The notes under the pieces are model-generated. The model worked only from the letters and a program-made list of their open reading frames with translations. It did no database searches and was not told the origin of the DNA. Positions 1 through 11,731 of a stretch of 11,731 nucleotides of DNA are shown one piece after another (the stretch's first letter is position 1; each line of letters starts with the position of its first letter). This DNA comes from a virus (lineage: Duplodnaviria; Heunggongvirae; Uroviricota; Caudoviricetes). Where the stretch lies: IMG/VR virus record IMGVR_UViG_2690316156_000010. One strand, given 5' to 3'. A program made the translations under genes and the position numbers.

Positions 1-486
1 ATGGGTGGCGCGGTAAACCAGACTACGATCAATAATGGAGTGCTACAGGTTTATGGCGCGGCGACTGATCCCACGATTAAAGGAGGGCGCGGTGATGCGG
101 CATTTACGTTGGGCAATGCCGGAAGCGTTGTTGATATCAGTACGTATGAATATACCTTGCTGGATAATGGCAACCATAGCTGGAGTCTCGCAGAGAATCG
201 CGTACAAATGCCCCCTTCAACCACGGATGTGCTGAATATGGCGGCAGCACAACCGCTGGTATTTGATGCAGAACTGGACACCGTGCGTGGGCGTCTTGGT
301 AGCGTAAAAGGCGTTAATTACGATACGGCGATGTGGAGTTCGGTAATTAACAGCCGCAACAACGTGAACACTGATGCGGGAGCTGGCTTTGAGCAAACAT
401 TGACGGGCCTGACGCTCGGTATCGACAGCCGTTTCTCCCGTGAAGAAAGCAGCACAACTCAGGCGGGTGTGGTCTGGACGTTCTGA
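1..486 (+). pseudogene. Autotransporter (AIDA-I/Ag43-type) C-terminal remnant; ORF enters from beyond the window start and appears internally deleted
   Basis: Translation shows the passenger/linker-to-barrel junction (…AAAQPLVFDAELDTVRGRLGSV…MWSSVINSRNN…GLTLGIDSRF) then jumps to a barrel-end-like …VVWTF and stops, with the ~250 aa beta-barrel body missing. The Met at position 1 is probably internal. Confidence 0.4.
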
Positions 487-498
487 TAACAGAAAATA

Positions 499-530
499 AA
501 CAGGCCGTGATGTGTCGCGGTCTGTTTATC
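499..530 (+). terminator. Rho-independent terminator after the autotransporter remnant
   Basis: Hairpin AACAGGCCG (499-507) / CGGTCTGTT (518-526), one G-U pair, followed by TTTAT. Confidence 0.45.
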
Positions 531-552
531 GAATTAAATGCAGATATAAAAA

Positions 553-579
553 AACCAACCGCAATAGGTTGGTTTTCTT
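553..579. terminator. Hairpin with flanking A and T runs (possible bidirectional terminator)
   Basis: AACCAACC (553-560), loop gcaatag, GGTTGGTT (568-575), then TTTTCTT; A-run immediately upstream. Confidence 0.4.
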
Positions 580-784
580 GGGATTCACGAGAGTAGTTTA
601 ATTTAGCGTGTAACCGCATGATTTTAATAAATATTATTGATTCAACTTTTAAACCGTATAACCAAACGTATAACTAAAATAATTTGCTGAAAAAATGCAC
701 AATTTAAACGGCGATTGCCCTAGCGACTTCCATGATTCTACCTGGATTTTTTTCGCTCATTCGTTTTTAAGCTGGTGGATGTTC

Positions 785-810
785 CCCGATATGGTGATCA
801 CCATATCGGG
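785..810. repeat. 26-bp perfect palindrome
   Basis: CCCGATATGGTGA|TCACCATATCGGG is exactly self-complementary. Confidence 0.5.
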
Positions 811-1242
811 ATTTACGCCAGGTTAATGTTAACCTCTGCCCTGTTAACATTTTTACCAAAAAGGTAGTTAACATTTTTTGCTCGCAACCAGATGAATCAT
901 AAAGACAAAATCAACAACAACGCTTCATCAGGCAGTTAACATGTTAACTACTACGAAACGGTAATTTTTTCTCTGCGTGAGAGGGGGCGCGGTGTCCAGC
1001 TTATTCGTTGTTCGTGGCTAACCACTCCCCCCCCCATGCCGGATTTTTTTTCCGGTTAACTGTTAATCAGGCTGGTGGGTTTTACCTGTTCTGTAGGAGT
1101 GGTCATTATGACCATCCCTTATATCGTCCGAATGCCGGACGAAGGCACACATCAACCGTAACGAAAATCGTTATGGTTGCCTTGATGGTCTGCGTGGTCA
1201 TTATGACCATTCAGCCAATGACCTTAATCAGAATTTTTCGCT

Positions 1243-1265
1243 AAAAAATGACGTTGACCACGTCA
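1243..1265 (-). terminator. Candidate rho-independent terminator downstream of the 93-aa ORF
   Basis: Stem TGACGT (1249-1254) / ACGTCA (1260-1265), 5-nt loop; A6 on plus strand upstream gives a U6 tail on the minus transcript. Confidence 0.4.
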
Positions 1266-1336
1266 TCCGGAAAGCACAAAATCACGTCGATTTTTAATGG
1301 ATGGTTAAACCGTCTTTATCTCGATGTCCGTACGTA

Positions 1337-1618
1337 TTACGTACGCAGTCGTTCCGGCTTCTTCCAGTGGTACGTTATTTTCTCCTTCTCCCGATACATC
1401 TCCACGCGGCGACGGTAGGCCAGCAACTCAAGAACTCTGGTTCGTATGTTGCGCATATCCACGCCATTAAGTTCTATACCATCACGGCGCATCACCTCAG
1501 CAACAACACGCACATAATTTTCAGCGGTCACGCTGTCCGGCTGTGTGGCCTGTTCGTCATGCTGCTGGCTGATTCCGGTAACGCGGCGGATTAATCCCAG
1601 TAGTTCGGCTTCTGTCAT
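1337..1618 (-). CDS. Hypothetical protein, 93 aa
   Basis: ATG at 1618-1616 with a G-rich SD about 5 nt upstream; balanced charged/helical composition (MTEAELLGLIRRVTG…). The overlapping plus-strand ORF 1301-1594 is H/L-rich and less protein-like. It sits beyond the cosB side of the cos region, where a phage would carry terS. Confidence 0.45.
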   Translation of the reverse strand: MTEAELLGLIRRVTGISQQHDEQATQPDSVTAENYVRVVAEVMRRDGIELNGVDMRNIRTRVLELLAYRRRVEMYREKEKITYHWKKPERLRT

Positions 1619-1649
1619 TGTGCCCCCATCGCTCTGATAGTCTGGTGTC

Positions 1650-1716
1650 GTCGGGTCCTTCCTGGAATTATGGCCCGTTACGGGGCGGCGACCTCGCGGT
1701 TTTTCGCTATTTATGA
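1650..1716 (+). other. Lambda-type cos site, copy 1 (cosQ-like + cosN + truncated cosB)
   Basis: Reads CGGGTCCTTCCTGG…CCCGTTACG|GGGCGGCGACCT|CGCGGTTTTTCGCTATTTATGA. The 12-nt cohesive-end sequence GGGCGGCGACCT is at 1683-1694 and the flanks match the lambda cos junction as I recall it. No R-type repeats follow. Confidence 0.7.
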
Positions 1717-2052
1717 GATTTTTTGAGGGGGTGGTTGTTGTTTAATTGTTTGGTATATCTAATTGATAAGTAAGGTAAAAATAAAATAAATACAACAACC
1801 TTACGATGTATTTTGATGTCATTAATGTGAAAAAATTCAATGATATCAAATGGTTTTGTAAAAACACATGGTTGTTGTATCGCGTATTTGATGGCGTAAC
1901 AGAAAGTGATTTTTAACTTTACCGCTCTGTAACTACGGATTATTCCATGCTGGCACGGAGAACGGCTACGGCATGACGCCACCCAGCCTATACAGAACAG
2001 TAAAGCCGATAAATTGTTAATCACGCGCAGCAATGCGTGTGATTTTTGCACA

Positions 2053-2250
2053 CTTCCGGTTAACGGGTACGATGTCCGGTTTTAGTGTCTGTTTTTTGCG
2101 CATGTCCGGTTCATAGAAAGCATGTTTTTATATTTTTCATATGGTTAACTTGCAGAGAAACCGGACATGGATCCCGGAAAATTTTCATAAATAGTGAAAA
2201 CGCGCGAGGTCGCCGCCCCGTAACGGGTCCATATGCCGGAAAGGACCCGT
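2053..2250 (-). other. Lambda-type cos site, copy 2 (cosQ-like + cosN + full cosB-like region), inverted relative to copy 1
   Basis: Reverse complement of 2171-2260 reads ACGGGTCCTTTCCGGCATATGGACCCGTTACG|GGGCGGCGACCT|CGCGCGTTTTCACTATTTATGAAAATTTTCCGG. cosN is at 2207-2218 (AGGTCGCCGCCC on plus). Three copies of ATGTCCGGTT follow at 2159-2168 (inverted), 2102-2111 and 2072-2081, with an AT-rich stretch between the first two, as in an R3-I1-R2-R1 cosB. Confidence 0.8.
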
Positions 2251-2274
2251 AAAAAAAAGCCGGATTTCTCCGGC
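2251..2274 (-). terminator. Rho-independent terminator of the capsid operon
   Basis: GCCGGA (2259-2264), loop TTTC, TCCGGC (2269-2274); A8 on plus (2251-2258) gives a U8 tail on the minus transcript, 7 nt past the stop of the 137-aa ORF. Confidence 0.6.
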
Positions 2275-2280
2275 CTTGTC

Positions 2281-2694
2281 TCAGATGGTTTTCAGTATGT
2301 GATCGATGTCGCCGTCATCGCCCTGGTTTCTGCCATCGTATGCCATGCCAGCTGATACGGCTTGCGGGCTGTGCATGTCCATAAAGTTTTCAAAGGCTGC
2401 GGTAAGCTCTGGTGCAACCTTTGGGCGCTCCTGCTCTATGGTCATGTTCAGGATTTCACGAGCATTATCGACGCTAATACATGGCACGTTTGCCATTGCA
2501 CGTAACAGCGGCTGATAGTCGTTATGTTCATGAAGCGCCATAATCGCATCAGCGCGCGGCTTGTCCTGTTCTTCCAGTTTGTTGAGTTGATATACGGCCT
2601 CGTAGGTTGATAACCCTCTGTCAGCCATTGCCCGCGCTTCGGCTTTAAATTTACTCGCCAGCGGTAGCGCCATGATGCTTTCATTCGTTGCCAT
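2281..2694 (-). CDS. Hypothetical protein, 137 aa, last gene of the capsid operon (positionally like lambda gpFI; unverified)
   Basis: ATG at 2694-2692 with SD AGGGGGAA about 4 nt upstream, 12 nt after the gpD-like stop; acidic C-terminus. No motif-level similarity to lambda FI that I can confirm. Confidence 0.55.
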   Translation of the reverse strand: MATNESIMALPLASKFKAEARAMADRGLSTYEAVYQLNKLEEQDKPRADAIMALHEHNDYQPLLRAMANVPCISVDNAREILNMTIEQERPKVAPELTAAFENFMDMHSPQAVSAGMAYDGRNQGDDGDIDHILKTI

Positions 2695-2706
2695 CGTTCC
2701 CCCTGC

Positions 2707-3042
2707 TTATCGGGCCAGCGGCTGAACGGATACGCCAGAACCCGCAAAGGCGGCGCATTTTTTCGCATCGGTGTCGACGCTCTCAGGCCAGTTAACGGCG
2801 GCGATATTGAATATCCCCGTCTTATAGCACTGTGCTGATTTCTGCGTCGACGTGTCAACGGGGTACGAGGTCAGATAAACAGCCTTGCCAGATTCCTGAC
2901 CATCCCACGGCTTAAACTCGCCATTGTCCGCCAGCATCAGCGGGGTAAATTCCTGAATAACGCCAGCATCAGCGGCAAAATGTACCAGCGTCGTTGATAC
3001 CTGCTGACTGCCTGCAAATAACTCAATGTATGGAGTGTTCAT
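2707..3042 (-). CDS. Head decoration protein, lambda gpD-like (111 aa)
   Basis: Motifs TPLMLAD, KPWDG, WPE, KK.AAFAG align with lambda gpD as recalled; size matches (lambda gpD is 110 aa). I place the start at ATG 3042-3040 with SD GGTGGA; the track's start at 3051 is a GTG inside that SD. Confidence 0.75.
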   Translation of the reverse strand: MNTPYIELFAGSQQVSTTLVHFAADAGVIQEFTPLMLADNGEFKPWDGQESGKAVYLTSYPVDTSTQKSAQCYKTGIFNIAAVNWPESVDTDAKKCAAFAGSGVSVQPLAR

Positions 3043-3053
3043 AGAATCCACCG

Positions 3054-4109
3054 TTAACCAATTTTGACGGTAACAAATTTGCGAATATCTGCCGGAACAG
3101 GCTGCGGTGCGCTGTGTGTCTGCACGTACTCAATCGCCGGATCGCCGTCTTCAATCCAGTTTTTCGGGTAAAACATGTTTTGCGTTGCGCCCGTTCTTAC
3201 CGCTTCCTGTTCCATAATCGCACCATAGGCCACCAGCCCTTTATTGTTGGTGTTGCCCAGGACCAGCAAATCAGGCTCAAGGAAATATTTTTCTGTGCCG
3301 TCGCTGTCAGTGTATTTGCCGGAATAGACGATAAGGGCCAGATCACCAAGATAGCCTTTAAAGCTCACCACTTCTCCCAGGTTTTTACATGCCAGCTCTG
3401 CGGCGGATTCTGAACCACGGGAGAGATCGTACAGTTCACGGAATTTTTTAAAGCTGCGTAACATGCGCCATACATCAACGCCCATAATCATGACGTTTGC
3501 GGGGCAACCTGCCTGATCTGCGTATAGCTCAATGTCATAGATTGGGTCGTGTATGTCTTTGTCCTGCTCTGACCATTTTTTACCGTCGGCCTGCTCTATG
3601 ATGTTTTTTTCCGGTATCTTCCAGTCGATTTCATAGCGCTCTATGCCTTCGCCCTCAATGATGTTTTTTCCGGTCGTTACCGCATTTACCGCCAGCCATT
3701 CCACGCGCGCTTTAATGGCGTTTATCTGGCGGCGCATGTTGCCAGTAATCAGGCGCATACGGCGGTAGGTAGGGTCGTTAAGCTGTGCTGGATCTTCTCC
3801 AGCCATGCGCATTATTGTTTTTAATGGATCGATTTCGTGTTTTGGCTTCATGTAGCCAGGGCGAATAATGCTTGTTTCGTACCCTTTATCGCGCTGAACC
3901 TGGCTACCCACCATAGGCGAACAAAACGCCGACATAGTGACTTCTTCAATATCCAGGTTATCTAACATGATGTCCTGTGTGTTGAATGTCGCCACGTTCG
4001 GGAAAAACAGCGCGGTAAACAGCGGACTGAATTTAAATTCCGCAATATCCTCGCGATTCAGGTACGCAAAAAGCTGGTTAGTGTTAAGTGATATTGCTTT
4101 TACTGTCAT
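3054..4109 (-). CDS. Major capsid protein, lambda gpE family (351 aa)
   Basis: Shared blocks with lambda gpE from memory: FKFSPLFTALFFP vs FKFDPLFLRLFFR; PGYMKPKHEIDP vs PGYVKPKHEVNP; EDPAQLNDPTYRRMRLI vs DEDPQNLADPAYRRRRII; YPKNWIEDGDPAIEYVQTHSAP vs YPKNWVTTGDPAREFTMIQSAP. ATG at 4109-4107 with SD GGGGGTGA; length close to lambda gpE (341 aa). Confidence 0.9.
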   Translation of the reverse strand: MTVKAISLNTNQLFAYLNREDIAEFKFSPLFTALFFPNVATFNTQDIMLDNLDIEEVTMSAFCSPMVGSQVQRDKGYETSIIRPGYMKPKHEIDPLKTIMRMAGEDPAQLNDPTYRRMRLITGNMRRQINAIKARVEWLAVNAVTTGKNIIEGEGIERYEIDWKIPEKNIIEQADGKKWSEQDKDIHDPIYDIELYADQAGCPANVMIMGVDVWRMLRSFKKFRELYDLSRGSESAAELACKNLGEVVSFKGYLGDLALIVYSGKYTDSDGTEKYFLEPDLLVLGNTNNKGLVAYGAIMEQEAVRTGATQNMFYPKNWIEDGDPAIEYVQTHSAPQPVPADIRKFVTVKIG

Positions 4110-4315
4110 TATTCACCCCCGTGAACCTGATTCATACCCAGCGCCGCGCGTAAATAGGCGCGTACCTGCCAGCCTGTTGACGGCTCAACCATCGCCAGCG
4201 GATCAAGTCCTGCCGCAATGCCTGCTTTTACGTTCTGCTGGTGGCGTTCCTTGAGCGCCTTCACGATGTCGGGGCTTATGTACACCGAAACACCGCCTTT
4301 TTTCTCTTCAGCCAT
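4109..4315 (-). CDS. Hypothetical protein, 68 aa, first gene of the capsid operon
   Basis: ATG at 4315-4313 with SD AGAGGAA about 9 nt upstream; its TAA overlaps the capsid ATG (TAATG), indicating translational coupling. No recognisable family. Confidence 0.5.
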   Translation of the reverse strand: MAEEKKGGVSVYISPDIVKALKERHQQNVKAGIAAGLDPLAMVEPSTGWQVRAYLRAALGMNQVHGGE

Positions 4316-4350
4316 AGTAAGAAATTCCTCTTTGACTTAAAAAATCATAA

Positions 4351-4399
4351 CTGGATGTTCATCCAGATCTGATTATAATCATGATTGCATTTTATGCAA
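4351..4399 (-). promoter_or_regulatory. Sigma70-like promoter of the capsid operon with palindromic operator candidates
   Basis: On the minus strand TTGCAT (plus 4394-4399), 16-nt spacer, TATAAT (plus 4372-4377). The -35 lies inside the palindrome TTGCATTTTATGCAA (4385-4399); the predicted start region overlaps the palindrome CTGGATGTTCATCCAG (4351-4366). Confidence 0.5.
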
Positions 4400-4480
4400 T
4401 GATGTTGAGTTGTGTTGCAAATTATGAAATGATGATCCCGATCATGTGTGTCAGTGCGCCAAAAAAAACCTCATATGCAA

Positions 4481-4521
4481 AAGCCCGATAAGATGCCTCC
4501 TGTACTTATCGGGCTTTTTTT
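4481..4521. terminator. Long hairpin flanked by A and T runs (bidirectional terminator candidate)
   Basis: AAGCCCGATAAG (4481-4492), 12-nt loop, CTTATCGGGCTT (4505-4516); T7 downstream and A8 upstream on the plus strand. Confidence 0.5.
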
Positions 4522-4526
4522 GGGTA

Positions 4527-4550
4527 CAAAAAAGCCGGATTACTCCGGCT
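4527..4550 (-). terminator. Rho-independent terminator of the replication/accessory operon
   Basis: AGCCGGA (4533-4539), loop TTAC, TCCGGCT (4544-4550); A-run on plus gives a U6 tail on the minus transcript, 6 nt after the stop at 4556. Confidence 0.6.
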
Positions 4551-4555
4551 GTTGA

Positions 4556-4828
4556 TTAGCTGCCTGGGTAATTACGCCATATTTCATCGCTTACACCATC
4601 TATACCCATTTCAGCATAAGTGCGATCGACTGCCTTTCTCAGGTCTCCGAAGTTATCCGGCGGCTCCGGTGGCCTCTGTGCCTTCCTGGAACATTCCAGC
4701 CGTCGCATCGTAACCTGATGCCGTTCCTTGTCTGTCTCCACCAGCTGCATGACTTCACCCCATCGTGCCGCCGCCCTCCGGTAAAAGCCTTTTGCCTCGA
4801 GTTCCTCCGCTATGCGGTCATGTACCAT
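4556..4828 (-). CDS. Small regulator, possibly PerC/Pch family (90 aa; track shows a longer 130-aa form from 4948 that overlaps ssb)
   Basis: ATG at 4828-4826 sits 11 nt after the ssb stop with SD GAGGGGGTGAGG. AEELEAKGFYRRAAARWGEVMQL resembles the PerC/Pch signature as I remember it (…LE..G.WRRAA.RW…); the family call is tentative. Confidence 0.45.
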   Translation of the reverse strand: MVHDRIAEELEAKGFYRRAAARWGEVMQLVETDKERHQVTMRRLECSRKAQRPPEPPDNFGDLRKAVDRTYAEMGIDGVSDEIWRNYPGS

Positions 4829-4838
4829 CCTCACCCCC

Positions 4839-5249
4839 TCAGAACGGAATATCATCACCGTAAGGGTCATCGCCTCCCGCTGGTGGCTGATTACCCTGTG
4901 TGCCTGTGGTTTTGCGTCTGTTCCCGCCAGGACGTGCCGCACGGGCACTGATTACGCTGTCTGCAATAACCTGATAACCCTGCCGCGTTTCCCCGTTCTG
5001 TCCGGTCCACTGGCTGACCTGCATCGTGCCGGATACGCTGGCAACGTCGCCTTTTTGATGTTTAGCCAGGAAGTCGGCCTGCTTACCAAATGCCATCACC
5101 GATAGCCATAACGTAGCCTGCCCATCCTGCGCCTGACTACATGGCAACGATACCGCCATACGTGCCAGCGTCATTGGTGTGCCCTTGCTGGTCTGTTTTA
5201 CCTGCGGGTCGTCCACCAGCCGCCCGTAAGCCGCTATCTGTGCTGTCAT
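4839..5249 (-). CDS. ssb: Single-stranded DNA-binding protein, short phage/plasmid-type (136 aa)
   Basis: OB-fold-like N-terminal region, Gly/Pro/Gln-rich linker, and the characteristic acidic C-terminal tail …DDPYGDDIPF. ATG at 5249-5247 overlaps the upstream stop (ATGA). Confidence 0.85.
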   Translation of the reverse strand: MTAQIAAYGRLVDDPQVKQTSKGTPMTLARMAVSLPCSQAQDGQATLWLSVMAFGKQADFLAKHQKGDVASVSGTMQVSQWTGQNGETRQGYQVIADSVISARAARPGGNRRKTTGTQGNQPPAGGDDPYGDDIPF

Positions 5250-5524
5250 GCTGTCTGCTCTCCGGTTTTAACGTTGATGGTTGTTACCTGTTCCGCTTCT
5301 GCAATCTCCCGCTCTGTCAGCGTGGCAAAGTTTGCCGCCGCCGTGGTCATGAATGCGCTTATTAGTTCGGGATGTGCTTTCGAGTATCCTTCTCCCGCTG
5401 TGATGTCTATCACCTTTATAGCCACCTTTAAGGCGTGCTCTGTCATCTCCAGCGCTTTATATCTTGGTGCTGTTCTGTCTTTGCGTTTTTTGAGTGATTT
5501 GTTAAATCTTCCTGATGTGTGCAT
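5246..5524 (-). CDS. Hypothetical protein, 92 aa, basic N-terminus
   Basis: ATG at 5524-5522 directly downstream of the iteron region; stop overlaps the ssb start, so it is co-translated with ssb. No family recognised. Confidence 0.45.
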   Translation of the reverse strand: MHTSGRFNKSLKKRKDRTAPRYKALEMTEHALKVAIKVIDITAGEGYSKAHPELISAFMTTAAANFATLTEREIAEAEQVTTINVKTGEQTA

Positions 5525-5572
5525 TTTTATTTTTACTCTCGTGTTTAAAAAGTTTTAGGTTGTGGTGCACCT

Positions 5573-5797
5573 CCTCTACCTCTCTACCTAATCATCTTTC
5601 ATGTCAGTAATGGCGCGGCTTTCAGATGGGTAGAGGGCTTTCGTGGCCCTCTACCCATCCTCTACCCGCCCCTCACAAACGATCTTAATCATGGTAGAAG
5701 AGGTAGAGAGGTTTTATTAGCCTTCTACCTAGCCCTCTACCCACTTATCATGTTGAATAATATGCGTTTATTTCATTCAGGTGGATGGGGTAGAGGA
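5573..5797. repeat. Iteron array, putative replication origin
   Basis: About ten copies of CTCTACC / GGTAGAG in both orientations (for example 5573-5580, 5582-5588, 5628-5637, 5648-5657, 5659-5667, 5693-5711, 5721-5730, 5733-5742, 5787-5797), with AT-rich stretches at 5745-5780 and 5800-5820, immediately 3' of the primase gene. Confidence 0.65.
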
Positions 5798-5810
5798 CTT
5801 TTACAAAAAA

Positions 5811-7559
5811 TTATAAAAACGCGTCACAATCATCAGTTGTAATTGCGTTGGTCTGCGTTACTCCCTTAACTCTCCGCGTAATATATTCATGTCCGTAAAC
5901 TTTTGCCGCTGGCTTCATGGCCTTGCTGAACTCAGCCACGTTTAGCGGTTTGCTCCTGCCTGCGTATGCCATAAACGCCAGATAGACGCGGTAAAGGCTG
6001 TTTCTGGTCGTGTACTTCACGGAATCGCCACCGCCACCCATCATCAGGCCGCGCGCTTCCTCCAGAAAATTCAGGAACTGGCAAAACTCAATAACCGGAT
6101 CCGTCTGTTGCTTTATCGCCAGTGCTTCATCACCGTCGCGCTGTTCCAGTAATAAAGCCCGTGCCTTTTCAGGGTCGGCAAAATTAGCCAGCAAGCGACG
6201 GATAATTACGGGGATTTCAGCCGCGACCTTCTCCGGCAAATCCTTGTCTTTTTCGTCCTCCCTTACAATGTTGTCGAACCGGAAAATCACCCGACGGCGT
6301 GACACACCTCCGGCCCGCTCGGTGAATATCATCGGGTTATTGTTGGTAGCCAGCACCACCGCCCTGATTACCGCCGTGAAACGCTTTTCATATTTCGGGT
6401 TAATTTCCACGGGGTCGCCGCCTGTGATTTTCTTGATGCCCGTTCCTTCGCCTGTATATTTCGGCTGGTCAGCCAGGACGATAAGACGACTCCCGACAAC
6501 CTGCGCACGTCCACCAGCATCATCAAGCGATGTCATTTCAGCGCTTACCGTGTTCTGTTTCCCTGCCAGAAGGCTGGCTATGTGTGTGAATGTACTTTTA
6601 CCGCTACCGCCCTCTCCGGTGGCCTCAATAAACATCTGCCAGTCGTACCGGTTCGCCATAATCATGTACAGCGCGGCACATATACGCATCATCTTGCGCG
6701 AGTCTTTTCCGGCTGCGTGCTCAAGCCATTTATGAAAGTTTGGCGCGTTATCGCGGATGTTCTCCCCTGGTGCTGGTGGCGTGTACTCAATGCCGTTGTT
6801 CGTGGTGATCCAGTTCTCCGGCGTGTGCGGGGAAAATTCCCCCGTTTTCAGGTCAAGCGCACCATTGGCGAACGGCAGCAAATCGCCGGACGGCTCGCCC
6901 ATTGGTTCGGCAATAACTTTTAACGCTTCCACGGCGTTATTGATTACGCGCTTGCTGAAAGTGGCCCTGTGCTCTGAATAGATCGCCACCATTTCGCGGC
7001 TAAGTTCCATTGTGCTGACCGGACACCATACCCCGCCGCGCCATACGTGAACGATTTCACTTTCCGGATGCACACAAACGCCATCAAATCGACCAGCAAG
7101 CATCTGTGCGCGCTCACTGTCTGCCATTTGTGCCAGTTGCGTATTTTTCTGCTCCGGCATGGTAAGCCCTGCGGCAATATTTTCACGCTCAGCATTCAGA
7201 TAGCGCCGCCAGTTTTCACACTTCTGGACGTGCATTCCTTCGGGGTAAAAATTTGCGTCCTGAATATCTGCCGCCGCCAGCTTCTGACCAATCTTTTTGG
7301 TCTCCACCAAATCCAGTTCTCCGGCCTGGTACAGCCTTACGCGTTTTTTTCCATCAGGAACAATTTGCAGTGCATCAAGTTCGGCAAGCTGATTTGGCCC
7401 AAGCCACACAGGAGGCACATTATCGCCGGATGCGGGGCCGTCCTGCTCCTGCCACTGTTTTGCATGTGCCCACGCATCACTACCCGCGAAAATAATCACC
7501 TCTGTGTCTTTGTGTTTTATTCCGCGTGGCTGTTTTTTTACGTTCGGTGCCAGTTTCAT
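5811..7559 (-). CDS. Replication initiator: primase / D5-type helicase fusion (P4 alpha-like, 582 aa)
   Basis: Walker A P-loop GEGGSGKST mid-protein with a downstream LIVLAD hydrophobic-acidic stretch (Walker B-like); size and position (after small early ORFs, before ori) match satellite pri/rep genes. ATG at 7559-7557 overlaps the upstream stop. Confidence 0.85.
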   Translation of the reverse strand: MKLAPNVKKQPRGIKHKDTEVIIFAGSDAWAHAKQWQEQDGPASGDNVPPVWLGPNQLAELDALQIVPDGKKRVRLYQAGELDLVETKKIGQKLAAADIQDANFYPEGMHVQKCENWRRYLNAERENIAAGLTMPEQKNTQLAQMADSERAQMLAGRFDGVCVHPESEIVHVWRGGVWCPVSTMELSREMVAIYSEHRATFSKRVINNAVEALKVIAEPMGEPSGDLLPFANGALDLKTGEFSPHTPENWITTNNGIEYTPPAPGENIRDNAPNFHKWLEHAAGKDSRKMMRICAALYMIMANRYDWQMFIEATGEGGSGKSTFTHIASLLAGKQNTVSAEMTSLDDAGGRAQVVGSRLIVLADQPKYTGEGTGIKKITGGDPVEINPKYEKRFTAVIRAVVLATNNNPMIFTERAGGVSRRRVIFRFDNIVREDEKDKDLPEKVAAEIPVIIRRLLANFADPEKARALLLEQRDGDEALAIKQQTDPVIEFCQFLNFLEEARGLMMGGGGDSVKYTTRNSLYRVYLAFMAYAGRSKPLNVAEFSKAMKPAAKVYGHEYITRRVKGVTQTNAITTDDCDAFL

Positions 7560-7855
7560 TTTTTACCCCTGAATACGTTAAGCATCTTTTTTATTTCCTG
7601 AATATTGGCGCGTGCTTTCTCCCTGCTGGTTGGAACGTTACGCGGTACAGCCTGCACCAGAGAAAAATCACGGTCGAACTGATAAACAGGCATCACGCAA
7701 TCATATTCGTAGCCTTCACGACGGTAGGTTACGCGCCGTTCCTCCACGCCCTTAATCATTACCGTGCCGCCGTACTGGTCGCGGTAAATATCACCGCGCA
7801 TGAATTTAGTGCGAGTTTTGCCACTGGCAGTTAAGCCAGAATATTTAAGTTTCAT
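7556..7855 (-). CDS. Hypothetical protein, 99 aa, immediately upstream of and coupled to the primase gene
   Basis: ATG at 7855-7853 with GGAG upstream; TGA overlaps the primase ATG. No family recognised. Confidence 0.5.
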   Translation of the reverse strand: MKLKYSGLTASGKTRTKFMRGDIYRDQYGGTVMIKGVEERRVTYRREGYEYDCVMPVYQFDRDFSLVQAVPRNVPTSREKARANIQEIKKMLNVFRGKK

Positions 7856-7860
7856 TATTT

Positions 7861-8088
7861 TTATTCTCCGGTATGGGGCGAGTTATTATTCTCGTGAATT
7901 GCCATCACTGTATTTAATTCATTAATAACAGGCGTTAATAGCGTACGCACGGCAGAAAACATCATTGAATCAGATTCATCGCCACTTTCCGGCACATCAA
8001 TTAACTTAAGTAGTAATGCGTCCATTTCCTTTGCGAGGATTAATGCGTTTTCAGAATGAACAAGAACATCAAAGGGTATTTTATGCAT
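7861..8088 (-). CDS. Hypothetical protein, ~75 aa (track shows 7861-8190 from a start without a ribosome-binding site)
   Basis: ATG at 8088-8086 preceded by GGGGGGAG; this start overlaps the stop of the upstream ORF by 8 nt (ATGCATAA). Confidence 0.4.
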   Translation of the reverse strand: MHKIPFDVLVHSENALILAKEMDALLLKLIDVPESGDESDSMMFSAVRTLLTPVINELNTVMAIHENNNSPHTGE

Positions 8089-8545
8089 GACTCCCCCCCT
8101 GGCGAATACGGGCGACAAAAATAAGATGTGCGTGCGGCAGCTGTGCACGTGCTTCGCGCTCAGTGGCAGCGGTAACGGTGAATATTGCAATACTGTCTGT
8201 CAGGCACTGCATAAAGCGCCAGACAAAATAAGGGCGTGCGGATACAGCCATGTGAAAGGCTCCCAGATGAATTTTAAGGAGTCTCGCTACTACGCTGTCA
8301 AACATGGTGGCGAGACGTAACAGGGTTGACAGACTGGTCATCTGGAAACCAGCGAGCACAAAGGCTCCCCCGTTACGCCCCGCCATAATGCGGGTATGGG
8401 TAGGTTTACGGACACAAAAAAACCGCTTATCGGATGTGGGCGGCTGTCCGCCAGATGTATTCAGGCTGTCAAACCCGGTCGCCATGTGGGCGACGGGGGA
8501 AGCATACAGCCCCGTGATAATTTTTTGCAAGCGGTTTTTACGCAT
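8081..8545 (-). CDS. Repeat-unit ORF B (154 aa from ATG 8545) ending in an Icd-like small domain; an internal SD+ATG at 8251 could give an independent 56-aa product
   Basis: C-terminal 56 aa MAVSARPYFVWRF…TEREARAQLPHAHLIFVARIRQGGSHA is paralogous to two other copies; GGGAG lies 8 nt before the internal ATG at 8251. The ATG at 8545 overlaps the stop of ORF A. Icd-like assignment is from memory of similarly annotated small proteins in P4/PICI elements. Confidence 0.45.
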   Translation of the reverse strand: MRKNRLQKIITGLYASPVAHMATGFDSLNTSGGQPPTSDKRFFCVRKPTHTRIMAGRNGGAFVLAGFQMTSLSTLLRLATMFDSVVARLLKIHLGAFHMAVSARPYFVWRFMQCLTDSIAIFTVTAATEREARAQLPHAHLIFVARIRQGGSHA

Positions 8546-9095
8546 GATGTGACCCCTGACGAATACGAGCGGCAAATACAGCAACACAACCTGACGGGCA
8601 ACGGCTACGCGCTTCGCGTTCTGTCCAGGCGGTTACGTGGATGATTTGAGATTCTGACGCGCCAAAGATGATAAAGCGCCAGATAAATGCGGTTTGAGAA
8701 TGTACAAGGGTAGGGATAGTAGCCATGTTGGCAGCCTCCTCAGTGTGGTTAAGATAACCGCCACGCAAAAGGCTAATTTCGCTGGTGGCGGACTGTACAG
8801 GGTTAGCCTTACCGGACACTGAAGAAACCGGCGCGGATTGCTCCGCCCCCGTACAGCCCACCATTGATAAGGTGTGACTATGCGGCACAAAAAAACACGC
8901 GGGGCGCGTGCTGTGCGCTTCAGTTGTTTTCAGGAGGCTAATCCCGACACCCGTTTTATGAGGTGCGCGGGAATCATAGCCATTTTTGCTGGTGGCGATC
9001 AAGCGGTTTTTTTCTCCGGCACTCAGTGCCAGAAAACGCCACACAAAGGCCGTTTGTGTGTGTACAAGGTGTGGTATATGATTTACGGCAACCAT
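8538..9095 (-). CDS. Repeat-unit ORF A (185 aa from ATG 9095) carrying two Icd-like repeats; an internal SD+ATG at 8726 could give an independent 62-aa product
   Basis: N-terminal copy MVAVNHIPHLVHTQTAFVWRF (SD GGAG before 9095) and C-terminal copy MATIPTLVHSQTAFIWRF…TEREARSRC…FAARIRQGSHHA (SD GAGGAGG before 8726). Between the copies, differences are mostly synonymous in this frame (CAT/CAC, ACC/ACG, GCA/GCC, CGC/CGT) and non-synonymous in the plus frame, which supports minus-strand coding. Confidence 0.45.
   Translation of the reverse strand: MVAVNHIPHLVHTQTAFVWRFLALSAGEKNRLIATSKNGYDSRAPHKTGVGISLLKTTEAHSTRPACFFVPHSHTLSMVGCTGAEQSAPVSSVSGKANPVQSATSEISLLRGGYLNHTEEAANMATIPTLVHSQTAFIWRFIIFGASESQIIHVTAWTEREARSRCPSGCVAVFAARIRQGSHHA
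8889..8910 (-). terminator. Intrinsic-terminator-like hairpin plus U7 inside ORF A (possible attenuator)
   Basis: On the minus transcript CACGCG-CCC-CGCGUG followed by UUUUUUU (plus 8896-8910 with A7 at 8889-8895), about 190 nt after the ORF A start; the U-run encodes the conserved CFFV residues. Confidence 0.35.
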
Positions 9096-9104
9096 AACGG
9101 CTCC

Positions 9105-9224
9105 TAGTTTACGTTGTTGGTTAGAAGCCCCGTTACTGCTCCTACAGTGCGGGGCTTTGCTTTTTGTGTTGATTGTGTGTAATGTGTCATTACACATAAA
9201 TACATTACATGAGGTGTAATTAAC
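9105..9224. promoter_or_regulatory. Divergent control region between the RHH gene (plus) and the early/replication operon (minus), with operator-like palindromes
   Basis: Inverted repeat TGTGTAATG-N3-CATTACACA at 9176-9196, further half-sites CATTACA (9203-9209) and TGTAAT (9215-9220), and a 7-bp-stem hairpin at 9126-9156. I could not place convincing -35/-10 boxes. Confidence 0.45.
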
Positions 9225-9404
9225 GTGTCAACACACAAAAACGAAAGGCGTGGTAATCCTCCGTTCCAGTTCCGTTTAGATCCTGACTTACGGGAAAAGA
9301 TGGAAAAGGCACAACAACAGGACGGCGATGATTCTCTTGCTGCCTGGATAAAGCGAATAATCCGCAAAGAATTACAGCAACGCGGCATAGAACCCAAAGG
9401 ATAA
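9225..9404 (+). CDS. Arc/Mnt-type ribbon-helix-helix DNA-binding protein (59 aa, GTG start; not in the ORF track)
   Basis: GTG at 9225 with SD GAGGTG 8 nt upstream and an in-frame stop just before it; translation VSTHKNERRGNPPFQFRLDPDLREKMEKAQQQDGDDSLAAWIKRIIRKELQQRGIEPKG shows the beta-strand (FQFRL) then two helices typical of Arc/CopG-type repressors. The plus strand is purine-rich here, consistent with sense orientation. Confidence 0.6.
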   Translation: MSTHKNERRGNPPFQFRLDPDLREKMEKAQQQDGDDSLAAWIKRIIRKELQQRGIEPKG

Positions 9405-9461
9405 AAACTATCAGCGCCGTGGTGTGAGGTACTCCGGCGCATTGCTTTACAGGCGCACACA

Positions 9462-9638
9462 ATGACCAACGAAGAATCAACCGAAAAAACATCACCTGCA
9501 CGAAAAAGACGACGCAGAAAGAAAGAGCATGAATCAGAACGATTCGCGCCGTGTTCTTTTGCCCTTGAGAAGTACCTTAAAGAATACTCATCAAAGGAGA
9601 GAGCTTCGCAGTTATGGCAACGAACTGAACCAGACTGA
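9462..9638 (+). CDS. Possible small basic protein (58 aa) downstream of the RHH gene; coding status uncertain
   Basis: ATG at 9462, weak SD, Lys/Arg-rich N-terminus (ARKRRRRKK). An alternative plus frame (9529-9780) and an antisense ORF also exist, so the true product here is unresolved. Confidence 0.2.
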   Translation: MTNEESTEKTSPARKRRRRKKEHESERFAPCSFALEKYLKEYSSKERASQLWQRTEPD

Positions 9639-9734
9639 TTGCATTGCCCACCAGCCTGATAGCGGCTATCATCCCCGTGCTTATGTTTGGGATCACACAC
9701 ACAAACAGCGCAGCGGGTTATCTGTTCAGAAAGA

Positions 9735-9760
9735 CGGCTCCATATCGGGGCCGCTTTTTT
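9735..9760 (+). terminator. Candidate rho-independent terminator for the plus-strand RHH transcript
   Basis: CGGCTCC (9735-9741), loop ATATC, GGGGCCG (9747-9753), then TTTTTT (9755-9760). Confidence 0.4.
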
Positions 9761-9786
9761 CGTGTTTGTCATATCTGTGATACCCG

Positions 9787-9993
9787 TTAAGCAGCCGTTC
9801 CGCGTGCTTCCTCTTCGCGTTCTTTCTGCCAGGACAACACATCATCCTCATACCATCCGCGACGGCGTAAACCAACGCGAAAACCCTGCGGAAATTCTCC
9901 GGCGTTGATCATGCTTTGCAGCGTGCTGTCTGCCTTGATGTGGATAATTTTTTTTACTTCCTGGCGAAAGATAATTTTTCTGATTGCTTCCAT
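9787..9993 (-). CDS. alpA: AlpA-family (MerR-like HTH) transcriptional regulator, 68 aa
   Basis: …IRKIIFRQEV…STLQSMINAGEFPQGFRVGLRRRGWYEDDVLSWQ matches the AlpA pattern (…FP.p.klg.R.v.W.e.ev..W…) and the position just downstream of int is typical for PICI-type islands. ATG at 9993-9991. Confidence 0.7.
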   Translation of the reverse strand: MEAIRKIIFRQEVKKIIHIKADSTLQSMINAGEFPQGFRVGLRRRGWYEDDVLSWQKEREEEARGTAA

Positions 9994-10123
9994 CGTGATT
10001 TACCTTGTGAATCCGGTGTATTCCGGTGACAAATACGGTAAATCATCAGATATGGGTAAAAACAGTTCCCACCGTTTTTAAACGGTATACACCGTTTTTT
10101 ATATTGATGATTTGAAATGGAAT

Positions 10124-10150
10124 TATAAAAAAAGCGGCATTTCTGCCGCT
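10124..10150 (-). terminator. Rho-independent terminator after the int-proximal small ORF
   Basis: AGCGGCA (10133-10139), loop TTTC, TGCCGCT (10144-10150); A-run on plus gives a U7 tail on the minus transcript. Confidence 0.55.
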
Positions 10151-10160
10151 TCCAGGATTG

Positions 10161-10412
10161 TTACCGCCATTTTTTGGGCCTGCCTCCGATCTTCATAGAT
10201 GCCGGACGTACGACCTTATCAATACTTACCGCCAGATTTCTGGAAGCGCCACGGGATACCAGAAAATCTACTACCTGTTTTTTTGATGGGGCCGTCGTTC
10301 TGTCCTCCGGATCGTAGGTTGACCAAAATTCATGCTGAACCATCAGGGCCAGTTGCAGCCCGTCGCAATTGCATCTGATATTTTTTTGCATCTTAACGGT
10401 TTCATGTTTCAC
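10161..10412 (-). CDS. Hypothetical protein, 83 aa, between int and alpA (GTG start at 10412; ATG alternative at 10391)
   Basis: ORF followed immediately by a clean terminator; first codon is GTG on checking the sequence. No family recognised. Confidence 0.4.
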   Translation of the reverse strand: MKHETVKMQKNIRCNCDGLQLALMVQHEFWSTYDPEDRTTAPSKKQVVDFLVSRGASRNLAVSIDKVVRPASMKIGGRPKKWR

Positions 10413-10489
10413 GGCCTTGTCGTTAAATTTGATGCAATTATACGACGGTTTTACATGGTTTTCGTAGTTTTTACTGGTTTTCTGTACAG

Positions 10490-11731
10490 CTACACGGCTC
10501 GGATACCCCTTTTACCACTGGCGAGGGTTACGCCCGTCGCCGCAGCCTCGACAAATTCGCCCCACCAGCGCATCAGCACGATGCGTTTTTCTATGTAGTT
10601 GCTCCGGTTGTATGCCCGTCTAACTTCGTTGGTGTCGACGTGGGCAAGTGCCGCCTCTATTACGTCCGGCTCGAATCCTTCCTCGTTCGCTGCTGTGCTG
10701 AATATGGCGCGTAATCCATGAGACACCAGCACGCCAGCGAATCCCATACGCCGCAATGCTGCGTTAGCTGTCTGGCTGTTCATCGGCTGCTGTGGGTCTT
10801 TCAGACTTGGGAAAACGTAATTGCGGTGGTGGCTGATTGGTTTCATGGCCTCCAGCACCGCCATAGCCTGACCGGAAAGCGGGATAACGTGATCCCTGCG
10901 CATCTTCATGCGTCCGGCAGGTATCGTCCATTGCTTCGCGTCCAGGTTGATTTCATCCCACCGCGTTGATGACGCTTCGGCGGGACGGGTTACGGTCAGT
11001 AACTGCCATTCAATCAGTAATCTGGTCTGCCGTTCTGTTGCCGATACTGATAAAGCCTGCATAAGCTCGGGCAGCTGTTCGGGGCGGATTGTTGGCATAT
11101 GTTTTTTTACAGGTGAGGGAAACGCCTTACGCACATTCATAGCCGGATTGGCATCAATCAGCCCACTGTTGGCGGCGTAATCCATTACCTCATTAACGCG
11201 CTGTAAAACCCGCTTGAGTGTTTCCAGGTTGCCGCGCTCCTTGATGGGGGTAAGCACTTCAACGAACCTTCGGGCGGTGAGGGTATCTATTGGCGTGTTG
11301 CCGATGAACGGGAATACATATTTATCCAGCGAACGCCAGATGTCTTTAATCGTGTTGGGGGCCAGATTCTGGCTGATTTTCACCTGGTACCATGCCGCCG
11401 CCACATTTTCGAACGTGTTCCCTTGTCTTCGGGCCTCTGTCTCTCTTTTTTGCCTCTCGTGGTCCTGCGGGTCAGTTCCGGCACTGATTAACGTCCTGTA
11501 CTCGCTACGGCGTTTTCTGGCATCAGCCAGGGAAACATCTTCAAGCGATCCAAAACTCAGCAATATTCTTTTTTTGTCCGATGGTCGGTAGTAGGAAAAT
11601 CTCCAGAGTTTTGATCCAGACGGTTTGACCAGGAGAAAAAGCCCTCCGCCGTCCTGCAGGGTGTACTCCTTTTGCGCTGGTCTGGCTGCTTTGATCTGCA
11701 CTGTGGTTAATGGGTGTGTTTTTCTCGCCAT
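10490..11731 (-). CDS. int: Tyrosine recombinase / integrase, P4-type (413 aa)
   Basis: N-terminal arm-binding-like region (…LFLLVKPSGSKLWRFSYY…) and C-terminal catalytic motifs (HGLRAIF = H-x-x-R; RRAYNRSNY with the Tyr). The ATG is the last three bases of the window, so the attachment site and tRNA are outside it. Confidence 0.9.
   Translation of the reverse strand: MARKTHPLTTVQIKAARPAQKEYTLQDGGGLFLLVKPSGSKLWRFSYYRPSDKKRILLSFGSLEDVSLADARKRRSEYRTLISAGTDPQDHERQKRETEARRQGNTFENVAAAWYQVKISQNLAPNTIKDIWRSLDKYVFPFIGNTPIDTLTARRFVEVLTPIKERGNLETLKRVLQRVNEVMDYAANSGLIDANPAMNVRKAFPSPVKKHMPTIRPEQLPELMQALSVSATERQTRLLIEWQLLTVTRPAEASSTRWDEINLDAKQWTIPAGRMKMRRDHVIPLSGQAMAVLEAMKPISHHRNYVFPSLKDPQQPMNSQTANAALRRMGFAGVLVSHGLRAIFSTAANEEGFEPDVIEAALAHVDTNEVRRAYNRSNYIEKRIVLMRWWGEFVEAAATGVTLASGKRGIRAV

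Follow-up and report, generated by a model that had tools for sequence, protein, structure and literature searches.

EcCICFT073, a phage-inducible chromosomal island (PICI) of Escherichia coli CFT073 and the prototype of its kind in Gram-negative bacteria, is a proven cos-type satellite (PMC6092414, 2018; PMC6739421, 2019). It was shown to be induced, excised, replicated through pri-rep and ori and transferred by lambda, phi80 and a resident prophage, and its pri-rep protein drives replication from the adjacent ori experimentally (PMC6092414). Both of its cos sites are functional, and because the DNA that it packages is all phage-sized, the terminase must skip cos sites (PMC6092414). Efficient transfer needs RppA, which binds the small terminase subunit (TerS) of the helper and retargets it to the cosB of cos1 (PMC6739421; PMC9026076). 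Here we describe an island in an 11,731-nucleotide stretch of DNA, IMG/VR virus record IMGVR_UViG_2690316156_000010, the whole of which we call the window. From its anatomy, homology, boundaries and cos type, as established below, we read it with high confidence as an EcCICFT073-type PICI at tRNA-Pro (proL)/yejO that would be packaged by a helper phage.

Gene order and relation to EcCICFT073

The window is E. coli DNA, as some part of it is matched by 5426 of the 5426 complete genomes and seven of these match at least 80% of its length. A provirus record of almost the same size, IMGVR_UViG_2563366903_000013 (11730 nt), is its reverse complement at 99.75% identity, and the window probably goes back to a similar provirus prediction. 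All substantial open reading frames (ORFs) of the window were assigned to families through Pfam and PHROG scans. An earlier note, made from the sequence alone, had listed an integrase, alpA, a primase-helicase, an iteron origin, ssb, a regulator, a capsid pair and cos in this order, and all of them were recovered in that order on the minus strand. The tyrosine integrase of 413 amino acids (10490-11731), with Phage_integrase, Arm-DNA-bind_3 and Phage_int_M domains, is followed by an AlpA-like helix-turn-helix regulator or excisionase (9787-9993), which has a PHROG excisionase/regulator match (E=2.5e-6) and a Pfam AlpA match below threshold (E=0.0028). Next come the pri-rep primase-helicase (5811-7559; D5_N, DUF5906 and Pox_D5 domains), the replication origin (5574-5795), the single-stranded DNA-binding protein gene ssb (4839-5249) and a PerC-family transcriptional activator (4556-4828), the last being an accessory gene of EcCICFT073-type PICIs in the literature (PMC6092414). 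A major capsid protein homologue of the lambda gpE family (3054-4109; Phage_cap_E, E=4e-49) and a head decoration protein homologue of the lambda gpD family (2707-3051; HDPD, E=4e-18) then lead to the cos region. The integrase, AlpA-like, pri-rep, ssb and capsid genes are intact full-length ORFs. As the earlier note had also said, terminase, portal, tail and lysis families found no match among the ORFs of the window in either scan.

The origin carries eight exact copies of GGTAGAG together with variants, in both orientations around an AT-rich centre. These are all the exact copies that the window holds, where chance predicts 0.46, and in 200 shuffles a count of eight was never reached. The non-coding stretch around it (5525-5810) lies directly 3' of the primase gene, which is the published PICI layout (PMC6092414 Fig. 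2).

The island and EcCICFT073 share about 90% DNA identity from the DUF4222 gene to cos (window 7886-2172), a pri-rep protein that is 89% identical and a size of 11.4 kb. By RefSeq annotation they also share the order int, alpA, Icd-like and small genes, DUF4222, pri-rep, iteron ori, ssb and PerC, continued by a 68-amino-acid gene, capsid, decoration, a 137-amino-acid gene, cos, a short cassette, an inverted cos and a 93-amino-acid gene. Where the window has two plus-strand ORFs, EcCICFT073 has antiparallel ORFs too, and each island has two lambda-type cos sites, one of them with a cosB of the type that we call B2. The integrases are only 24% and the AlpA homologues 27% identical, as expected from the different attachment (att) sites, ycfD-phoQ in EcCICFT073 and tRNA-Pro/yejO here. 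In EcCICFT073 the cassette reads cos1, satellite cosB, rppA and B2 cosB on the inverted cos2, whereas in the window island rppA is reduced to a short stub, the B2 (cos2-type) cosB sits at the cos1 position, and the other cos has a sequence that we call S instead of the cosB recognised by RppA.

A P4-like satellite dependent on a P2-type helper would likewise account for the primase-helicase of D5_N type, the AlpA-like regulator, the Icd-like and Ash-family genes, an integrase gene next to a tRNA and a length of about 11 kb. However, no ORF matches the psu, sid or delta families in Pfam or PHROG, the window has no match with up to three mismatches to GGCGAGGCGGGGAAAGCAC, which we take to be the P2/P4 19-nt cohesive end, and the island has a lambda-type cos and capsid genes of the lambda gpE/gpD family. 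Comparison with known satellites, which the earlier note had proposed, thus returned the PICI gene set and neither the psu/sid/delta genes of P4 nor a P2-type cos, and we regard a P4-like identity as highly improbable.

Chromosomal site and island boundaries

The earlier note had also suggested comparison with an island-free strain, and E. coli K-12 MG1655 provides one: at its empty site the 3' end of tRNA-Pro directly follows the yejO terminator (CTTGGGATTTTTGGTCGGCACGAGAGGATTTGAACC). This comparison gave both tRNA-Pro junctions and placed the island from about position 586 of the window to about 230 bp past the window end, a span of 11.4 kb that falls within the roughly 8-15 kb of Gram-negative PICIs. 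The earlier note had given about 10-11 kb; the start lies at about 586 and not at 1337, and the end falls outside the window. In strain S1-CAM-02-A, which matches the window at 99.5% over 457-11731 and at 94.7% over 85-457, the island measures 11,409 bp. The insertion point is the 3' end of tRNA-Pro (proL), beside yejO, the autotransporter gene whose 3' end occupies window 1-486 on the plus strand. On the int side of carriers the intact tRNA is regenerated, about 220 bp past the window end; a tRNA scan of the window itself found none, tRNA-Pro sitting just outside. On the yejO side a displaced copy of the core remains, and island DNA begins after it (TAGTTTAATT...). When the empty K-12 site and three relatives (loci L001, L002 and L010) are set beside the window, this junction falls at 577-593, where chromosomal CTTGGGATT is followed by CACGAGAG, a remnant of the displaced core of the tRNA-Pro 3' end (ATTTGGTCGGCACGAGAG). 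The island is therefore bounded by one full and one damaged copy of ATTTGGTCGGCACGAGAG, the displaced copy lacking one nucleotide in two relatives, two in S1-CAM-02-A and nine in the window. Damaged displaced tRNA fragments of this kind have been described as typical of PICIs (PMC10111431). About 632 bp from the 3' part of yejO that S1-CAM-02-A still has (L001 8375-9006) are missing from the window (near 457), and strain DETEC-S792 has the same deleted allele.

Four PICIs, EcCIED1a.1, EcCIATCC25922, SdCI1012 and SbCISb277, have been listed at the yejM-luxR/aidA site (PMC6092414 Table S1). They share with the island its chromosomal site, a size of about 11 kb and TTTAGTTATACG-type repeats listed as the att core. 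None of them is among the 14 genomes with a window-type cassette, and their packaging cassettes, judged from this absence, probably differ from that of the window. The listed repeats (TTTGTAGTTATACG...) appear in the window as tandem repeats of CGTATAAC(C/T)AAA at 655-683 (PMC6092414 Table S1), with further copies 130-190 bp inside the int end (L001 20321-20377). A 26-bp direct repeat among them, the published att core, was rejected as the att site by the K-12 comparison, as it is inside the island: the repeats at 655-683 lie about 65 bp within it and are absent from the empty site. The true junctions thus lie outside the published repeats, by about 65 bp on the yejO side and 130-190 bp on the int side. 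Being missing from the empty site, the repeats are more likely integrase arm-type binding sites than a crossover core.

In S1-CAM-02-A the island is flanked by ccm/narP/yejO on one side and by tRNA-Pro, yejM and yejL on the other, and the island of DETEC-S792 has the same chromosomal flanks. Neither genome has phage structural or lysis genes next to the island. This bears on whether the locus could be a lambdoid prophage remnant, in which capsid, decoration and scaffold-like genes and a cos were left behind by deletion, as these proteins and the cos are all of the lambda family. The capsid homologue is 45% identical over its full length to the gpE of a lambdoid prophage, the decoration homologue 45% over 75 amino acids to a gpD, and the 137-amino-acid scaffold-like protein (2281-2694), which resembles the C-terminal scaffold (Nu3-like) part of the lambdoid gpC/S49 head protease, 37% over 83 amino acids to residues 416-493 of a CFT073 prophage protease. 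With only 37-45% identity to prophage counterparts they make poor leftovers of such a phage, and their order of E, D, Nu3-like, cos is the reverse of the cos-Nu1-A-W-B-C/Nu3-D-E of lambda. Furthermore, the att copies bound the unit precisely at 11.4 kb, it comes with an integrase, a primase and an iteron origin of its own, and EcCICFT073-type units recur at several att sites and match a proven satellite. The earlier note had named contiguous phage genes beyond the window as the finding that would speak for a prophage; with narP/yejO and tRNA-Pro/yejM found there instead, we give the remnant explanation hardly any credence. The classification as a cos-type satellite and not a prophage stands, on about 90% DNA identity to the proven EcCICFT073 and on the chromosomal flanks.

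Two facing cos sites and the loss of rpp

The lambda cosN 12-mer GGGCGGCGACCT occurs in two exact copies, at 1683-1694 on the plus strand and 2207-2218 on the minus strand, where about 0.001 would be expected by chance. The earlier note had supposed that cos sites bracket the unit. Instead, the two are 524 bp apart within a 72-nt inverted repeat (arms 1652-1723 and 2178-2249, 83% complementary), and their cosB sides face each other across 454 bp. Set against lambda, each copy is preceded by a cosQ-like GGGTCCTT(T)CC and followed by an I2-like CGCGGNTTTTCNCTATTTATGA. The plus-strand cos (1652-1723), made up of cosQ-like, cosN and I2-like parts, lies on the side of the 93-amino-acid gene, points rightward into the cassette and is the positional counterpart of EcCICFT073 cos2. 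The minus-strand cos (2178-2249), with cosQ, cosN and I2, lies on the side of the 137-amino-acid gene, is co-oriented with the island genes and has the position of EcCICFT073 cos1. The island cos is thus of the lambda type and, judged by its motifs, should be usable by a helper terminase.

The two sites differ in what is joined to them. On the minus strand, B2 (1984-2177) is a phage-type cosB with an inverted R3 (2159-2169), an AT-rich spacer, R2 (2101-2111) and R1 (2070-2080). In lambda, where cos reads cosQ-cosN-I2-R3-I1-R2-R1, the 12-nt cohesive end is exactly the same, the cosQ and I2 flanks are similar and cosB has the same layout, but the R-site sequence is different, the core of R3, R2 and R1 in B2 being CCGGACAT. 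Over window 2072-2255 there is 94% identity to the cos-cosB of the lambdoid phage PhiR12_1 (PV340549), in which the matching region ends 49 nt before the Nu1 gene. Unlike in lambda and PhiR12_1, no Nu1 or A genes follow the island cos, and a second, inverted cos faces it. B2 is also 94% identical to the cosB of EcCICFT073 cos2. The 2018 and 2019 papers recognised no phage cosB at either cos site of EcCICFT073 (PMC6092414, PMC6739421). The S sequence on the plus strand (1724-1801) is a satellite-type, cosB-like sequence with no phage match beyond cosN/I2. It resembles the cosB that precedes a Nu1-family terS in DETEC-S792, as well as the cos2-side sequence of many Rpp-bearing islands.

Between S and B2, the place of rppA holds a non-coding stub (1919-1987, minus strand), detected by tblastn and blastn. 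With RppA as the tblastn query only the last 23 codons align (1987-1919, 74% identity), and reading by hand leaves about 15 codons in frame with a stop before them. An Rpp protein beside cos marks the EcCICFT073 subgroup and is not shared by all PICIs. A plus-strand ORF of 36 amino acids in the cassette (1806-1916) has no family match, and the Nu1-family TerS of DETEC-S792 has no match in the window. In relatives the same slot is filled by rppA, by other Rpp-like helix-turn-helix genes or by a Nu1-family terS. The last is the case in the DETEC-S792 island (L002 8156-8698), where the rppA slot holds a small terminase gene of the Nu1 family at full length (Pfam Phage_Nu1, 82.6 bits). With terS in DETEC-S792, rppA in EcCICFT073 and nothing in the window, the slot appears as a swappable packaging-specificity cassette. 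We considered whether the window cassette is a simple inversion of that of EcCICFT073; this was ruled out, as B2 is turned round but the rpp stub still points in the original direction. It is better described as a cassette of the type seen in loci L008 and L009, in which the cosB and most of rpp have been replaced by B2.

Spread and inversion of the cassette

Eleven complete genomes have the rpp-less 451-bp cassette (1725-2175) over its full length at 97% identity or more. In one of them the island sits at cspD-clpS and has a different integrase and a DUF927 replicase, with a cassette that is still 99.8% identical. Presence in 11 genomes including another chromosomal site argues against a single dead copy.

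Relative to the flanking 93- and 137-amino-acid genes, the cassette is oriented as in the window in eight of the 11 complete genomes and oppositely in three; among nine IMG/VR loci the figures are five and four. The relatives in which the inter-cos segment lies one way or the other include loci L011, L015, L019, L022, L024, L025, L027 and L029. Each orientation is found on flanks that differ in divergence (91.6-99.9%), and several independent flipping events must therefore have taken place. In flipped window-type cassettes the cosQ halves stay with the outer flanks and the cosB halves swap, with the switch point inside 25 bp of identity, CCCGTTACG-GGGCGGCGACCT-CGCG, that contains cosN. An rppA cassette can be inverted as well: in strain WP4-S17-ESBL-08 (L022) a cassette 99.4% identical to that of EcCICFT073 lies the other way round, so that rppA is antiparallel to the island genes, and 14 more genomes are candidates for the same arrangement by a match to this inverted junction. 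Counts of junction types by megablast are only partly informative, since S resembles the terS-type cosB and inflates the count of 487 for that junction. In E. coli O121 strain 201805972 (L023) only about 386 bp separate the 93-amino-acid-like gene from the 137-amino-acid gene, which suggests that the cassette and one cos were lost altogether. The key EcCICFT073 papers make no mention of cassette orientation or inversion in PICIs, and neither did our literature search return any.

How such flipping could come about is suggested by the geometry of the sites. If terminase cut both of the facing cos sites, the piece set free would have the same cohesive overhang at each end. Since the overhangs are identical, the cassette could rejoin either way round, or the left end of a helper or of another satellite could take its place; the result would be terminase-driven inversion and cassette swapping. 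Precise cutting as the sole mechanism is unsupported: in L022 the breakpoint in one arm lies 30-37 nt outside cosN, though still inside the cos arm, so that at least some of the events are explained by gene conversion or ordinary recombination between the arms. Terminase cut-and-rejoin and recombination are both compatible with the present data, which do not distinguish between them. Tentatively, and with more doubt than conviction, we propose that the 0.5 kb inter-cos cassette is a recurrently flipping, exchangeable helper-specificity module, whose rpp-less form is no wreck but a working "natural cosmid" tuned to PhiR12_1-type helpers.

Proposed packaging and candidate helper

If the island behaves like EcCICFT073, a lambdoid helper would activate it, Int and the AlpA-like protein would excise it, and the primase-helicase, acting at the GGTAGAG iteron origin, would turn it into concatemers; the helper terminase would then cut the lambda-type cos of the island and fill helper-made heads. 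The earlier note had asked whether so short a unit is packaged as multimers or into smaller shells. For EcCICFT073 this has been answered, as its packaging is summarised as concatemers of about 45 kb in phage-sized capsids (PMC6092414; PMC10111431). By the same logic the expected load here would be four 11.4 kb units (45.6 kb) per phage-sized head. Such a load amounts to 84-88% of the 51.9-54.4 kb genomes of PhiR12 phages and to 94% of the 48.5 kb lambda genome, three units (34.2 kb) making about 70% of the latter. The usual packaging window of lambda is about 78-105%, and three units would presumably be too short for a lambda head.

The smaller-shell alternative is a capsid-forming satellite that makes small heads from its own capsid, decoration and scaffold-like proteins and depends on the helper only for tails, or perhaps for portal and terminase as well. 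It would fit with the intact capsid gene, with the decoration gene and the Nu3-like fragment, and with a unit that at 11.4 kb falls far short of filling a lambda-sized head. Yet the portal, protease, terminase (including terS) and head-tail connector genes that define capsid-forming PICIs are missing. In EcCICFT073, whose packaged DNA is all phage-sized, deletion of the capsid (c1499) or decoration (c1500) homologue left interference and transfer unchanged (PMC6092414), and a search of the literature after 2019 found no phenotype for the capsid or decoration genes. We consider a capsid-forming lifestyle very improbable for the island. The 137-amino-acid protein is named "head-tail connector" in some RefSeq records, a name to which the protease comparison lends no support.

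Because rpp is lost and the co-oriented cos carries a phage-type cosB, we propose direct packaging by a PhiR12_1-type helper: its unmodified terminase would package the island in the fashion of a natural cosmid, without Rpp-based interference. The likeness would then be to the SaPIbov5-type cos islands of Staphylococcus aureus (SaPIs), which carry the cos of their helper, are directly recognised by its terminase without a satellite specificity factor, as we infer for the island, and also have a capsid-protein homologue. They differ in being an unrelated lineage in a Gram-positive host, and their capsid homologue Ccm is known to redirect capsid size, while no phenotype is known for those of E. 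coli. Candidate helpers are common, as the PhiR12_1 cos-Nu1 module is found in 1141 of 5426 complete E. coli genomes. In S1-CAM-02-A a 100% identical copy lies 1.6 Mb away from the island, in a prophage whose head, tail and lysis genes form a complete lambda-like set, and among the best 60 of the 1141 matches NCTC9112, STEC2018-607 and SCU-172 also combine the module with the same rpp-less cassette. Whether this variant is in fact packaged by the unmodified terminase of its helper through B2, independently of Rpp, or has simply decayed, we hold to be an evenly balanced question.

Several points weigh against a working island. Its induction, excision, replication, packaging, transfer and load size are carried over from EcCICFT073 by analogy, and the cos2 of EcCICFT073, which is of the B2 type, proved dispensable with lambda and phi80 (PMC6739421). 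Binding of a PhiR12_1-type TerS to B2 is assumed from the conserved CCGGACAT repeats, the match being 94% and not 100%. Cassette and PhiR12-type prophage occur together in at least four of the 11 cassette genomes, counted among the best 60 matches. This gives P=4e-6 against the best-60 list but P=0.18 against the overall carriage of 21%, in strains that are not independent, so that at 21% carriage the co-occurrence is unremarkable. The 9-nt loss from the displaced core may impair excision, or disable the tRNA after excision, and both the loss of rpp and the ash pseudogene could be mere decay.

Taken further, such points would make the island a decayed, immobile PICI relic, present in several genomes through vertical descent and homologous recombination. 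The rpp stub, the damaged att core, the ash pseudogene and the deletion of about 632 bp in the adjacent yejO would all agree with this, as would the need for RppA in efficient EcCICFT073 transfer. Against it, the integrase, AlpA-like, pri-rep, ssb and capsid genes are intact and an exact cosN with cosQ and I2 is kept at both cos sites. The 99.8% identical cassette beside a different integrase and replicase at another att site, and the two orientations on flanks of varying divergence, indicate continuing exchange, while damage to the displaced tRNA is typical of PICIs (PMC10111431). On balance we find a relic rather unlikely, and we retain the reading as a helper-packaged, EcCICFT073-type PICI.

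Regulatory RNAs and other features of the island

The stretch that the earlier note had taken for small early ORFs (8081-9197) does hold short Icd-like ORFs and a pseudogene, but it consists largely of non-coding RNA genes. On the minus strand Rfam models score above their gathering thresholds for isrK (8890-8966), two C4 antisense RNAs (8781-8868 and 8303-8390) and a c4-a1b1 target element (8458-8507). Interleaved with them are the Icd-like ORFs (about 8538-8726 and the 3' part of 8081-8545, minus strand), taken from RefSeq annotation, and an ash-family pseudogene (approximately 8765-9103, minus strand) with coordinates transferred from the RefSeq annotation of a near-identical genome. Within the stretch, 8081-8966 is a duplicated module resembling P1 immI, with RNA and Icd parts, where mechanical ORF calls give long overlapping ORFs.

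That all genes lie on one strand, as the earlier note had it, is nearly true. The exceptions are two small plus-strand ORFs, an Arc-like repressor (9225-9404; PHROG E=2e-6) and its neighbour (9462-9638; phrog_21027), which together may be the island's own repressor module. The remaining minus-strand genes are a small hypothetical protein between int and alpA with no family match (10161-10412), a DUF4222 protein (7556-7855), a conserved protein of 92 amino acids (5246-5524; phrog_1231), the conserved 68-amino-acid protein (4109-4315; phrog_3255) that is translationally coupled to the capsid gene, and the 93-amino-acid conserved PICI protein (1337-1618; phrog_1561), 84% identical to its EcCICFT073 counterpart. 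Between the att junction and this gene, about 750 bp of island DNA (586-1336) have no convincing ORF or Rfam match and are rich in symmetric elements, among them a perfect 26-bp palindrome (785-810) and GTTAAC-containing repeats (843-951). A 17-nt repeat, GTGGTCATTATGACCAT, occurs at 1099 and 1194.

Significance

The satellite reading of the island is right but not new, as the EcCICFT073 family is already well studied, and the main value of re-identifying a member lies in correct annotation. Virulence and regulatory genes, perC among them, travel with PICIs at high frequency. The only part that a specialist might find new is the rpp-less, phage-cosB, flipping cassette. A natural rpp-less island with a phage cosB on its co-oriented cos would test whether Rpp becomes dispensable when a satellite copies the packaging signal of its helper. 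A flipping inter-cos cassette would offer a simple explanation for the switching of helper specificity in EcCICFT073-type islands, and perhaps some insight into why a second cos that seems counter-productive has been retained in EcCICFT073.

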